Assembly (NCBI RefSeq): GCF_057098645.1
Contig: NZ_CM169472.1
DNA: 64,000 bases
Direction: 5' to 3' (one strand)
Below are positions 24,001-30,000 of this stretch, piece by piece (position 1 is the first letter of the stretch; every line of letters begins with the position of its first letter). A program made the position numbers.

Positions 24001-27000
24001 CGAAAATTTGCGCTGGCGCTCATGTCCGGGAAAAACAAAACAGCGTCAGCCATTGCCGCTGGTTATTCGGCGAAGACCGCCAGGGTTAAAGGCTCGCAGC
24101 TGGCAAAAGATCCGGAGGTGCTTGCGTTTATAGCCCGTAAACAATGCGAGACGGTGGAGGTGGATGAGGTTCCTGTTTACCGGCAGAAAAAATCAGAGCA
24201 GGAGGATAAACCCCGTCGCCGTGAGGCGGCTGCAATACCACAGCCGGACGAAACAAATCCGGAGATGCCACCGCCCGTGGTGATATCTCCTGGTATTGAG
24301 TATATGGAGGACGGTCTTCCCGATCCGGTGAAAGCGATGGGGCGTCTTCTGGTGGAGAACATTAATACCGACCCCAGGCTGGCGCTGGATGCGGCTTATA
24401 AGCTGGCGCAGTTCACGCACCACAAAAAAGGGGATGCCGGTAAAAAATCGGCAAAAGGTGACGCGGCGAAAAAAGCGGCTAACCGTTTTGCGGTGCCACC
24501 ACCACCCCGCCTGGTGGTGAATAATGATAATGAGGGCAACGGATGATACCTGTGTGGAGCACGGCCTGCCCGGACTGGGCAGAGCGCCTGAAAAAGGGGC
24601 TGTCGATTATTCCGGCTCCGATTTATCCGGACCAGGCTGCACATGCACTGGCGATTTTTAAACAACTGCGGATTGTGGATGCACCGGGTAGCCCGACATT
24701 CGGGGAGTCCTGTGCACCGTGGGTGTTTGACCTGGTGGCGGCCCTGTTTGGCTCCTACGATGCGCAGACCGGTGTTCGCCATATCAAGGAAGTGTTTATC
24801 CTTATCCCCAAGAAAAACAGTAAGTCCACGCTGGCCGCGGGGATCATGATGACGGCGCTGTTACTGAACTGGCGGCAGGCGGCGGGCTACACCATTCTGG
24901 CCCCGACCGTGGAGGTGGCGGCTAACGCCTTCAACCCTGCCAGGGATATGGTACGACGGGACGATGATCTGGATGACCTCTGTCAGGTGCAGACACATAT
25001 CCGGACCATCACCCATCGGGTGACGGACACCACCCTGAAGGTGGTGGCAGCCGATCCGAATACGGTGTCCGGTATCAAGTCCGTGGGGACACTGATTGAT
25101 GAACTGTGGCTGTTTGGCAAGCAGTACAAAGCGGAAGACATGCTACGTGAAGCCATCGGCGGGCTGGCTTCACGTCCGGAAGGGTTTGTGGTGTACACAA
25201 CCACCCAGTCGAATGAACCGCCTGCCGGGGTGTTCAGGCAGAAACTGCAGTACGCCCGGGATGTCCGTGACGGCAAAATTCATGATCCGCACTTTCTGCC
25301 GGTGATTTTTGAGCATCCTCCTGAAATGGTGGAAAGCGGGGCTCACCTGCTGATGGAAAACCTCGCCATGGTTAACCCGAATCTCGGCTATTCGGTGGAT
25401 GAGGCCTTTCTGTACCGGGAGTATCGTAAAGCCCGGGAAGCCGGGGAAGAGACTTTCCGCGGTTTCATGTCAAAACACGCCAATGTGGAAATTGGTCTTG
25501 CCCTGCGTTCTGACCGCTGGGCAGGGGCGGATTTCTGGGAGCAGCAGGGCAGGCGCGTCAGCCTGGACGATATCCTGCAGCGCGCTGATGTGGTGACGGT
25601 GGGGATTGACGGCGGGGGCCTGGATGATCTGCTGGGAATGTACGTGACTGGCCGTGACAGGGAAACCCGCGAATGGCTGGGCTGGGGCCATGCCTGGGTG
25701 CATGAAACCGCGGTGGTCAGACGGAAGAGTGAGGCATCCCGGTTTCAGGATTTTGTGGCCTGTGGAGACATGACGATTGTCCGTCGGGTCGGGGATGACA
25801 CGGCGGAAGTGGCGGAGTATGTGCGTCGTATTCATGAGGCTGAGTTACTGGATCATATCGGTATTGACCCGTCAGGTGTGGGGCAGATTCTGGATTCACT
25901 GGCGGAAGCCGGGATCCCCGATGAGAGTGTGGTGGGGATAAGCCAGGGCTGGAAGCTGGGCGGGGCCATCAAAACCACCGAGCGCAAACTGGCTGAGGGA
26001 GTGCTGGTGCATGGTGGTCAGCCACTGATGGCCTGGTGCGTTGGCAATGCCCGGGTGGAGCCTAAAGGTAACGCCATTCTTATCACCAAACAGGCCAGCG
26101 GACGGGGAAAAATTGACCCGCTGATGGCGCTCTTCAATGCGGTGTCCCTGATGTCCCTGAATCCGGAACCGAAAAAGAAAGCGTATGAGGTTTTTTTCAT
26201 ATAACCCTGCTCACCCTGTAACCATCATGAACCGCTGCGGCGGTTTTTTTATTTTCAGGAGGCTGATGTGACTCTTAAACGGGCCTGTTCCCTGCTGACG
26301 GTGAAATCCTTCAGTGAGGATGAACGGGTGATCACCGGGATTGCGTCAACGCCTTCTCCGGATCGGGATGGTGACATCCTGGAGCCGGAGGGGGCGGAGT
26401 TTGGCAGTACGATCCCGTTTCTCTGGCAGCATGACCATTCCCGCCCTGTAGGCCAGTGTACGGTGCGTCGGGTCAGGGAAGGGCTGGAAATCACGGCAAT
26501 GCTGGTGAAGCCGGAGCCGGGGATGCCCTCCCAGATGGCAGCCCGGCTGGATGAGGCCTGGGCTGCCATTAAGACCGGGCTGGTCAGGGGGCTTTCTGTG
26601 GGCTTCCGGCCCCATGAATACACTTATCTGGACGGAGGCGGACTGCATTTTCTGCGCTGGGAGCTGATGGAGGTGTCTGCCGTCACCGTGCCCGCGAATG
26701 CGGAATGCACCATCCGGACCATTAAATCTTTCGGCAGCCCGTTTTCTGCCGCGTCCGGCAACCGGAGACCGGTGGTGAAAATCGCATCTTCTGCCGGCGC
26801 TTCGGCACAGTCAATAACCTCTTTTCATAAGGAAAAGTCAGCAATGAATACTGGTGAACAGATTAAAAGTTTTGAAAACAAGCGTGCGGCGCTGGCAGCC
26901 TCCCTTGAGGAGATCATGAACAAAGCCGCAGAGGAAGGCCGCACACTGGATGTGGAAGAGGAAGAGCACTACGACAACACCGCAGCGGAAATCCGTCAGG

Positions 27001-30000
27001 TGGATGCGCACCTGAAGCGTCTGCGTGAACTGGAAGCCGGTAAGGCCGCCACGGCACAGCCGGTGAAACAGGCCGGTAACGGGAATGTGGCCACGGTGGC
27101 TTCAGCGCCGGTGATCCGTGTTGAGCAGAAACTGGAGAAGGGGATTGGTTTCGCCCGCTTTGCCAAATCACTGGCCGCGGCTAAAGGTGTCCGCTCTGAA
27201 GCCCTGGAAGTGGCCCGTCGTCAGTATCCGGATGACAGCCGTCTGCATCATGTCCTGAAATCGGCGGTGGGGGCAGGGACCACCACGGACCCACAGTGGG
27301 CAGGCAGCCTGTCTGAATATCAGGAATATGCGCAGGACTTTATTGATTACCTGCGTCCGCAGACCATTATCGGGCGATTTGGTCAGGGCGGGATCCCTGC
27401 ACTTCGTCTGGTGCCGTTCAATATCCGCGTGCATGCCCAGGTGTCCGGCGGTGCTGCCGGCTGGGTGGGGGAGGGTAAGGCCAGACCCCTGACGAAGTTT
27501 GATTTTGAGTCCATCACCTTCAGTCATGCGAAGGTGTCGGCCATTGCGGTACTGACGGAAGAGCTGATCCGCTTTTCCAGTCCGGCAGCTGATGCACTGG
27601 TCCGTAATGCGCTGGCAGAAGCGGTGGTGGCGCGTCTGGACACAGACTTTGTGGACCCGAAAAAAGCTGCAGTGGCAGATGTCTCCCCGGCGTCCATCAC
27701 CCATGATGTGAAGGGCACGGCATCAACCGGTAACCCGGATGCGGATGCCGAGGCCGCGTTTGGCCAGTTTGTGACGGCAAATCTGCAGCCCACTGGTGCT
27801 GTCTGGCTGATGTCCAGCACGAATGCCCTGGCGCTGTCCATGCGTAAAAATGCGCTGGGTCAGAAGGAATATCCGGACATGACCCTGCTGGGCGGGACCT
27901 TTCAGGGGCTTCCGGTGATTGTCTCCCAGTACGTGGGTGACCAGCTGGTACTGGTGAATGCACCGGATATTTATCTGGCGGATGACGGCGGTGTGGCAGT
28001 GGATATGTCCCGTGAAGCGTCACTGGAAATGCAGTCTGAGCCGGGCGGCGACAGCACCACACCGTCGCCGGTGGAGCTGGTTTCCATGTTCCAGACAGGC
28101 AGTGTGGCCATCCGTGCGGAGCGCTGGATCAACTGGCGTCGTCGCCGTACCGCGGCGGTGGCGGTGATCACCGGAGTGAACTACGGCAGTGCGTCCGGCG
28201 GCTGAGTCTGATAAGGAGGACGGGAGGCGTGCGCCTCCCGTAACAGGTTATGGCAAAGATCCGATATCTGCAGGGCACGCATGATGGCCGGGCCGGGGAT
28301 ATCCGTGATGTCGCACAGCCGTGTGCGGAGGTGCTGGTTCGCCTGAGGAAGGCGGAGTACATCACAGCGCGACGTCCGGCGGGTCAGAAAAAGAAACATG
28401 ATGCGGAGCATAGCGAATGTGGAACTTTTTGCGACGAACCCGAAAAAACCAGAAATCAGGACGTGATGTAAAAGAGGTGGGCTGGACCAGCCTGTTTCAG
28501 GCGGTGGTTGAGCCCTTTGCCGGCGCCTGGCAGCAGGGTGTGAAAGCCGATCCGGAAAGTGTCCTCTCCTTTCATGCGGTGTTTTCTTGCATTTCGCTGA
28601 TATCCCAGGATATCGCCAAAATGCGGCTGCGCCTGATGCAGACGGATACACAGGGGATCCGCCGTGAAAAACGGCAGGGGGATATTGCCCGTCTCTGTCG
28701 TCGTCCCAATGCACAGCAGAATCGTATCCAGTTTTTTGAACTGTGGCTGAACGCCAAACTGCGTCACGGCAATACGGTGGTGCTGAAAATCCGTAACTCC
28801 CGGGGGCAGATCAAAGAACTGCGTATTCTGGACTGGAGCCGGGTTGAACCTCTGGTGGCGGATGACGGCGAGGTGTTCTATCGCATTACACCGGACCGGA
28901 ACTGCGGGATCACGGAGGCGGTGACGGTGCCTGCCAGGGAAGTGATCCACGACCGGTTTAACTGTTTTTTTCATCCGCTTGTGGGGCTGCCGCCGGTGTA
29001 TGCTGCCGGGCTGGCGGCCACGCAGGGGCATCATATTCAGGAAAATTCGACGTCTTTTTTCAGAAATGGCGGCAGGCCGTCCGGGGTGATTGAGATCCCC
29101 GGCAGTATTACGGAAGAAAATGCGAAAAAACTGAAGAGCAACTGGGACAGCGGGTATACCGGCGAAAATGCGGGGAAAACGGCCATTCTGAGCAACGGGG
29201 CAAAATACAACCCCACGACGTTTTCACCGGTGGATGCGCAGACGGTGGAACAACTGAAGATGACCGCTGAAATTGTCTGTTCGGTGTTCCGTGTCCCGGC
29301 CTACAAGATTGGCGTTGGCCAGCCACCTTCCAGTGACAACGTGGAGGCGCTGGAGCAGCAGTATTATTCCCAGTGCCTGCAGACGCTGATTGAGTCCATT
29401 GAACTGTTACTGGATGAGGCGCTGGAAACGGGGGAAAACGAGAGTACGGAGTTTGACGTCACCACGCTGCTGAGAATGGACAGCGAACGGCGCATGAAAA
29501 CGCTGGGTGAGTCGGTGAAAAATACGCTTCTCACGCCCAATGAGGCCCGTAAACGTGAGAACCTGCCGCCCCTTGCCGGCGGTGATGCACTGTATCTTCA
29601 GCAGCAGAACTACAGTCTGGAGGCGCTGTCCCGTCGTGATGCCCGTGAAGATCCGTTTGCGTCGTCCGGGAAAAGAGTTTCAGCCCAACTGCCTGACGGC
29701 GCATCTGACGGTAATAAGGCAATCAGTGAAACAGAGCATGGTGCGGTGAAAGCGATGTTGAGGGGGATACTGCGAAAATGACGGAACGGGAACTGTCCAT
29801 TATTCGTGCACTGGGAGAAGAATTCTCCACGGTGCTGGCGGATTTACAGCGCACATTTGAGGGGAAGATGGCCTCGCAGGCACAAGCGTTTGAAGAGAAA
29901 CTGACTTCCCTGTCGGCGGTATTACAGAAGCATGTGACGGTGGATGAGGTGCGTCCGGTTCTGCAGGCGATGGTGGATGATGCTGTGGGGGCCATTCCGG

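Follow-up and report, generated by a model that had tools for sequence, protein, structure and literature searches.

The 64,000-nt stretch of contig NZ_CM169472.1 (NCBI RefSeq assembly GCF_057098645.1) analysed here, hereafter the window, carries a 645-amino-acid open reading frame (ORF) in which a prohead protease, a scaffold-like region and an HK97-type major capsid protein (MCP) lie in one frame. Conserved initiation signals at an in-frame ATG behind the protease part suggest that translation of this fusion gene probably gives two nested proteins, one a subunit that carries the protease and the other the bulk of the capsid protein. In the explanation that we favour, ribosomes starting at the GTG at 26268 would make the 645-residue protease-scaffold-capsid chain, and ribosomes starting at the ATG at 26844, with a Shine-Dalgarno (SD) sequence of its own, would make a 453-residue scaffold-capsid chain that supplies most of the shell subunits. 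Since both chains share the assembling part, they would co-assemble on the portal, and the fused chains would carry the protease into the procapsid with no need for a separate targeting signal. The protease would then excise the scaffold region together with the linker and its own domain, so that about 310 residues of HK97 fold remain as the mature protein. To this explanation as a whole, including a role in expression for a hairpin behind the capsid gene, we give a probability of roughly 0.65. The parts of the gene and its two translation starts are as follows.

26257..26262, plus strand: SD sequence AGGAGG for the full-length product, read from the sequence, 5 nt 5′ of the GTG at 26268.
26268..28205, plus strand: fusion gene (prohead protease, linker, delta-like scaffold, HK97-fold MCP), 645 amino acids, GTG start.
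26316..26726, plus strand: beta-rich protease domain of assemblin/gp21 fold, residues 17-153.
26727..26843, plus strand: disordered, indel-rich linker holding the internal ribosome-binding site, residues 154-192, from alignments and a predicted local distance difference test (pLDDT) score below 50 at residues 154-189.
26829..26834, plus strand: internal SD-like AAGGAA, 9 nt 5′ of the ATG at 26844.
26844..26846, plus strand: in-frame internal ATG (Met193), putative start of the 453-residue scaffold-capsid product, which would begin MNTGEQIK, from comparative evidence.
26844..27263, plus strand: delta-like scaffold region, residues 193 to about 332, from the AlphaFold (AF2) model, its C-terminal boundary placed tentatively.
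27264..28202, plus strand: alpha/beta HK97-fold capsid domain, the presumed mature capsid protein, residues about 333-645, from Foldseek, PF05065 and phmmer.

The evidence for the internal start comes from a comparison of one locus per species in 80 species of Gamma-, Beta- and Alphaproteobacteria and a few metagenome-assembled genomes of other phyla (82 loci analysed), with homologues of the window's genes located in each; the comparative tests were based on this one-genome-per-species scan, a scan of viral contigs having given nearly all near-identical E. coli copies. The protease and capsid parts form one fused ORF in 52 of the 82 loci (52 species) and two adjacent genes in the other 30. 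A start codon stands at the aligned junction in every one of the 52 fused loci (50 ATG, 2 GTG), and in close relatives Met193 is invariant while the preceding 40 residues vary in sequence and length. The AAGGAA-type motif is found in all enterobacterial loci although the encoded residues differ. The mean energy of pairing with the 16S anti-SD shows a single sharp trough centred at -10 nt (-5.7 kcal/mol vs -0.15 ± 1.1 elsewhere), and the strongest anti-SD site of the upstream 120 nt falls at -18 to -7 in 36 of the 52 loci (binomial p = 2e-24), or in 20 of 31 (p = 3e-13) when the same test is confined to a non-redundant set with dissimilar upstream sequence. Because the GG core of the internal SD occurs in all three codon registers (28/18/4), the signal lies at the level of the RNA and is not the trace of a conserved peptide. 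Compared with the remainder of the gene, the 40 nt round the junction have a relaxed structure (mean z +1.41, Wilcoxon p = 3e-10) and little GC (z -2.5); 41 of the 52 fused loci have a second codon beginning with AA. The median strength of the internal SD is -5.6 kcal/mol, compared with -5.8 at the MCP starts of the 30 split relatives and -2.1 for the in-frame background. GTG, the weaker start codon, opens the full-length frame in 76/76 E. coli-type loci, and the internal start there is ATG; a silent change from AAGGAAAAG to AAAGAAAAA would weaken the internal SD. The gene thus has an in-frame internal start codon with initiation signals of its own, as nested assembly genes have. On this comparative evidence we read the junction signatures together as the marks of a used initiation site, and it is the conserved start codon, the positioned SD, the relaxed structure and the A-rich second codon that make two nested products probable.

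The split loci have their capsid start at the same place. In these the capsid gene begins at the equivalent of Met193, often with its start overlapping the protease stop (ATGA or GTGA) or sitting a few bases after it, and the stand-alone capsid representatives P0252, P0194 and P0233 also begin at the Met193 position (query residues 193-637 align to residues 1-462 of P0252). Fused and split loci are intermixed on a neighbour-joining tree of the capsid part, which requires at least 15 changes of state; the window falls in the largest all-fused clade, of 19 taxa whose capsid identity goes down to 46%. The two arrangements are therefore interchangeable states of one module. That the gene is nested, with the Met193 site yielding free scaffold-capsid protein and the full-length product acting as the covalent carrier of a few protease molecules, and that the toggling between states is possible precisely because the capsid start is kept, appears to us somewhat better than an even bet.

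The preliminary description of this locus had proposed that the ORF joins a protease, a scaffold-like linker and an HK97-type capsid domain, and this three-part reading is supported by profile searches, by the AF2 model and by conservation of the active site. PF04586 (Peptidase_S78) matches residues 48-153 with 33.2 bits (cut-off 21), PF05065 (Phage_capsid) matches residues 386-635 with 54.8 bits (cut-off 24.2), and TIGR01554 (HK97 capsid) reaches 80.7 bits (cut-off 27.5) in an alignment that starts at residue 204, equivalent to profile position 3. The stricter equivalog profile TIGR01543 (HK97 protease) gives 44.8 bits over residues 48-154, under its cut-off of 59, which makes the domain a member of the S78 family and not a close equivalog of gp4. 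The match to PHROG 617 runs from end to end (E = 2.7e-258, residues 1-639 on profile positions 7-626 of 626), which shows the fused arrangement to be an established family in its own right, while NCBIfam NF045541, which describes a protease/capsid fusion, matches partially (residues 49-269, 53.1 bits, E = 2e-14) and so far under its cut-off of 525 bits that it represents a different fusion family with the same architecture.

The AF2 model, built from 115 diverse homologues (mean pLDDT 86), delimits the protease, delta-like and capsid parts. Within the scaffold region it predicts a two-helix hairpin (residues 195-262) with high confidence, which aligns to the N-terminal part of TIGR01554, then a disordered stretch (263-292) and three short helices (293-331). 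The capsid region, with pLDDT above 90, matches in Foldseek with probability 1.0 the capsids of Bxb1, HK97 (prohead I/II), T5, D3 and the gene transfer agent (target TM-scores 0.5-0.74), as well as encapsulins, and phmmer also matches it to the Bxb1 MCP. The Lys-Asn isopeptide 'chainmail' cross-links belong to HK97 proper and are not universal in this capsid family. The model would place the mature capsid N-terminus near residue 333, and GAGTTTDPQWAG at the ~332/333 boundary resembles what we take to be typical mature N-termini of the family. An E. coli O157:H- allele of 602 amino acids (P0004) is without residues ~294-336, and so without the three short helices that lie between scaffold hairpin and capsid fold; if functional, it would help to mark a dispensable part of the scaffold region.

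Because Foldseek with the whole model returned capsid matches only, the N-terminal domain was modelled separately. By fold comparison it shares an assemblin-like fold with T4 gp21 and the herpesvirus proteases, and it was fold comparison alone that found a protease relative, as PDB searches by sequence, whether with the entire protein or with a profile of the N-terminal domain, found none. Among 150 representatives with identity to the query down to 38%, and with gapped rows left out of the counts, His55 (FLWQHD) is conserved in 146/146, Ser110 (GLSVGF) in 145/146, Ser137 in 145/145 and Glu135 in 143/145. His55, Ser110 and Ser137 are invariant in alignment A2, and in alignment A3 these three and Glu135 are. 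From the motifs of HK97 gp4 we assume that Ser110 is the nucleophile. The active-site residues are intact, and the domain is predicted to be an active capsid maturation protease of the HK97-gp4 type (MEROPS S78). The S78 profile, the assemblin-like fold and the invariant His55 and Ser110 led us to reject a non-protease N-terminal domain, one of the two findings by which the preliminary description would have fallen.

The order TerL, fusion gene, portal given in that description is correct, the portal being identified by PF04860 and TIGR01537. Its further remark that this is not the common HK97 order holds with respect to HK97 itself; however, the order is no rearrangement in this prophage but the fixed layout of a very large head-module lineage, as TerL, protease/capsid, portal, the downstream gene X and usually the connector follow one another in essentially every one of the 82 loci, and it is the same in the three loci whose called genes were read.

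Two stem-loops lie next to the capsid gene.

26229..26256, plus strand: terminator-like hairpin GAACCGC-TGCG-GCGGTT with a T-run, between TerL and the fusion gene, from a terminator scan.
28220..28241, plus strand: GC-rich hairpin with a 9-bp stem and a 4-nt GUGC loop, 14 nt 3′ of the capsid stop, without a T-run.

For the second of these, the inverted repeat GGGAGGCG/CGCCTCCC reported earlier is present at 28222-28229 and 28232-28239, but folding gives the 9-bp stem and 4-nt loop and not the 8 bp and 2 nt that had been described. The 60-nt stretch containing it has a minimum free energy of -22.1 kcal/mol (z = -3.0; 1/200 shuffles folds as well). Within 70 nt after the capsid stop, 58/82 loci have a GC-rich stem of 7 bp or more, with unrelated sequences, compared with 23/75 after TerL, 1/78 after the portal and 1/67 after X, and E. 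coli alleles alter the stem yet retain a hairpin. A T-run follows 19 of the 58. The hairpin after the capsid stop is thus a conserved positional feature. Its probable role is to protect the capsid message or to end part of its transcription, which would allow the high-copy capsid to be expressed above the low-copy portal downstream.

Directly 5′ of this hairpin, the window has a strong SD sequence, AAGGAGG (28211-28217), as do most of the enterobacterial relatives. The ATG of a small ORF (28250) lies 8 nt 3′ of the hairpin and 32 nt from AAGGAGG in the linear sequence, so that the two would come to normal spacing if the hairpin forms, an arrangement that can be likened to the split ribosome-binding site of T4 gene 38. 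By eye, Pseudomonas and alphaproteobacterial relatives have the SD 3′ of the hairpin instead. The stem-loop on the other side, immediately before the fusion SD, folds weakly by itself (z -1.6), and a similar 'gcgggtttttt' is found ahead of the fusion gene in enterobacterial loci; the capsid gene is thereby bracketed by stem-loops. The SD of the full-length product is likewise kept, as (A/T)GGAGG, in the six enterobacterial relatives examined.

Several points weigh against the two-product explanation. The window's own AAGGAA is moderate (-6.2 kcal/mol) and ranks at 0.11 among the in-frame start-like codons of its gene, and we found no proteomics, N-terminal sequencing or ribosome-profiling data in the literature for any member. 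A shell built of fused chains throughout is physically conceivable and would not strictly need a second product. The at least 15 switches between fused and split forms mean that some internal signals could be leftovers of recent fusions. As for the hairpin behind the capsid gene, the terminator scan of the window did not call it, with no T-run after it, which led us to reject a canonical intrinsic terminator, and the role of partial terminator or mRNA-stabilising element that we infer for it is a guess from position alone.

The main alternative is a single 645-residue product, in which every subunit bears its own protease and removes it after assembly, the internal ATG and SD being unused relics. 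Such a gene would fit the uninterrupted ORF and an upstream SD (AGGAGG) stronger than the internal one, it is what published descriptions of such fusions assume (PMC8508860, PMC5513430), and with frequent switching many fusions may be young enough to hold relics. Relics should not, however, remain positioned and intact in old fused clades, and for this reason we consider a single product rather unlikely, if still a serious possibility. The start codon is kept in all 52 fused loci, the distance of the SD is held while the linker changes in sequence, length and register, and the signals persist within the 19-taxon all-fused clade despite the divergence of its MCPs. The relaxed mRNA structure persists as well, as do the AA-rich second codons, and the internal SD is as strong as in the split relatives, where it is certainly used. 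A second alternative, that the internal purine motif is no start but a by-product of a Lys/Glu/Gly-rich linker or an SD-like pause for protease folding, is very improbable. The linker is indeed rich in K, E and G, which have purine-rich codons, and a second, weaker anti-SD dip lies at about -70 to -95 nt, but the main trough is sharp at -10 nt from the conserved ATG and not spread over the linker, and composition leaves the invariant start codon, the A-rich second codon and the match to the split-gene start unexplained. On the sharp position, the invariant start codon and the split-gene match, we rejected an origin of the motif by composition alone.

The gene is found far beyond the window. 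It encodes the head shell of a common E. coli prophage, long-tailed and lambdoid, of the PPompW/Stx1a/Stx2c-phage type. At the DNA level the gene is 99.9% identical to the gene of prophage PPompW and Stx1a-converting phages of E. coli O145:H28, and the same gene is 95-98% identical in the Stx2c/Stx1a phages 2851, 1717, YYZ-2008 and BP-4795. It is carried by 1,250 of 5,426 complete E. coli genomes, in up to 7 copies per genome, and one cluster of the 645-amino-acid protein has 9,916 member sequences. The nearest relatives (643-650 amino acids, 72-77% identity) come from Salmonella, Enterobacter, Klebsiella, Serratia, Pantoea, Kosakonia and others. When 1.8 billion cluster representatives were searched exhaustively, 12,360 matched at E <= 0.001 and 1,133 at E <= 1e-30, and more than 130 of the top 150 representatives (50% identity clusters) are full-length fusions of 630-680 amino acids. 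The fused architecture is also found in Pseudomonas, in Rhizobiales and in inducible Stx phages sequenced as phage DNA. A few database proteins of ~1,080-1,094 amino acids (P0001, P0123 and P0132) have ~440 extra N-terminal residues ahead of a full fusion, and P0001 has a TerL ATPase domain; they may be read-throughs of TerL into the fusion, or errors of gene calling or assembly. The reading of the window's fusion as a sequencing or assembly artefact, or as a decaying prophage pseudogene in which a frameshift merged separate protease and capsid genes, is effectively refuted, and with it the doubt about a sequencing frameshift raised in the preliminary description: split relatives exist, some differing by just a frame or a stop codon at the junction, and the neighbouring portal region is marked 'frameshifted' in RefSeq, but the same architecture and length (644-650 amino acids) recur across independent assemblies, sequencing technologies and many genera, with the active-site residues invariant.

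The gene lies in the late operon of the phage, on the plus strand at 23.3-33 kb of the window, as read from the ORF list with Pfam, PHROG and NCBIfam. Its neighbours are listed below; the 73-amino-acid ORF and gene X, in or beside the range of the preliminary description, were absent from it.

23330..23695, plus strand: HNH endonuclease (Pfam/PHROG/NCBIfam).
23983..24546, plus strand: small terminase (Pfam/PHROG/NCBIfam).
24543..26204, plus strand: large terminase, TerL (Pfam/PHROG/NCBIfam).
28250..28471, plus strand: small ORF, 73 amino acids, PHROG 829 (function unknown), hypothetical protein WP_025380550.1.
28417..29781, plus strand: HK97-type portal, 454 amino acids (PF04860, E = 4e-81; TIGR01537, E = 2e-106).
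29778..31163, plus strand: gene X, a 461-amino-acid repeat protein, its start overlapping the portal stop (ATGA).
From 31160, plus strand: head-tail connector, head closure, gp10-like, tail completion and major tail genes.

The small ORF overlaps the portal start by 55 nt. Of 77 sequences searched iteratively (76 loci and the window's own ORF), 46 have a related small ORF in this place; these come from Alpha-, Beta- and Gammaproteobacteria and share a motif of roughly Y-x-G-R-x(3)-G-D-x-F…A-x-x-L. The ORF is thus a conserved, if uncharacterised, member of the head module. The portal stop overlaps the X start (…GGGGGATACTGCGAAAATGACGG…), with X in the -1 frame (29760-29800). In the E. coli-type loci (n = 58), portal and X are split in 43 and form one continuous ORF in 15, the latter having a run of six G instead of five, with a C>A change close by. 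Hence the label 'frameshifted' for the portal in RefSeq, and hence the span of PHROG 2271, a profile of 859 positions, over both genes; the difference in the G run may be a real polymorphism, slippage or error. The behaviour of portal and X mirrors that of the fused and split protease-capsid pair.

Gene X has tandem 54-amino-acid repeats, and its length in E. coli relatives steps by 54 amino acids (299, 353, 407, 461 and 569). Homologues stand behind the portal in nearly all species examined and consist of a coiled-coil-like N-terminal part, collagen triple-helix repeats (in many relatives) or 54-amino-acid repeats, and a C-terminal CBM5/12-like motif. This architecture is fibre-like, and X is possibly a head or neck fibre; no solved relative was found by sequence.

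It is important to separate what is already catalogued from what may be added here. The fusion itself is known, as the window holds a near-identical copy of catalogued genes, while the nested capsid start that we propose, the frequent switching between fused and split states and the conserved hairpin behind the capsid gene are apparently undescribed. Roughly one complete E. coli genome in four has this type of head gene, which Stx1a- and Stx2c-converting phages also carry, and its annotation is inconsistent: RefSeq labels it 'phage major capsid protein', GenBank 'phage prohead protease' or 'capsid and scaffold', and the BP-4795 record 'putative major head protein/prohead protease', and the probable internal start is never marked. 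If two products are made, this would explain how protease-capsid fusions set their stoichiometry, with the protease incorporated sub-stoichiometrically. The hairpin would also give a rationale for the gene order, with the high-copy capsid first, then the hairpin and the low-copy portal last.

The closest known systems differ from one another in which part of this arrangement they share. With HK97 gp4 and gp5 the window gene shares the protease family S78, the capsid family and fold (TIGR01554, PF05065), a helical scaffold function within the N-terminus of the capsid protein, and a protease coding region directly 5′ of that for the capsid. Unlike in HK97, the two are in one frame, joined by a disordered linker of ~40 residues, the protease-capsid pair stands before the portal and not after it, and the scaffold region appears longer (~140 residues, by our placing of its boundary, vs 102). 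The HK97 protease is delivered by means of a separate targeting segment. Phages BP-4795, 2851, 1717, YYZ-2008 and Stx2a_WGPS, and PHROG 617, have the same gene at 95-99.9% identity, of which the window copy is one more allele; the internal start is unmarked in the records of all five phages.

More distant fusions are also on record, and the term 'Major capsid and protease fusion protein' has become standard in annotation. Pseudomonas phage MD8 has protease, scaffold and capsid in one gene, with a lambda-C-like protease and a Mu-like capsid protein (PMC8508860), and protease-capsid fusions have been reported from Arthrobacter phage clusters AM, AU and AN and Rhodococcus phage RRH1, also printed 'RHH1' (PMC5513430), and from Rhodobacter cluster RcC (PMC8601537). 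Like the MD8, actinobacteriophage (AM/AU/AN/EE) and RcC fusions, the window gene puts three assembly functions into one gene and was recognised bioinformatically; MD8 and the actinobacteriophage and RcC fusions are independent lineages, and the actinobacteriophage fusions share little sequence with it. An internal start in protease-capsid genes is not proposed in the literature covered, including these three papers, a coverage that lacks the HK97 protease paper, which is a possible place for natural fusions. The papers on the Salmonella FSL SP-016 and Shigella Sf101 phages contain nothing on the fusion gene, and a review of phage assembly does not mention such fusions. A T1-like protease-scaffold fusion, from a CBASS paper, was judged not relevant.

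The closest likeness in expression is to the nested genes of phage lambda and the herpesviruses. In lambda C/Nu3 and in herpesvirus UL26/UL26.5, a long protease product and a shorter, commoner product from an internal in-frame start share their C-terminal part and co-assemble. Use of the internal start has been shown for lambda and the herpesviruses; for the window gene it is inferred. PMC11565193 deals with the conserved expression strategy of the herpesvirus protease-scaffold module. The logic proposed here is the same, with the difference that the shared part is the scaffold alone in those systems and would be the scaffold together with the capsid protein in the window gene. If this is true, the nested strategy of lambda C/Nu3 and UL26/UL26.5 extends to the capsid protein itself.

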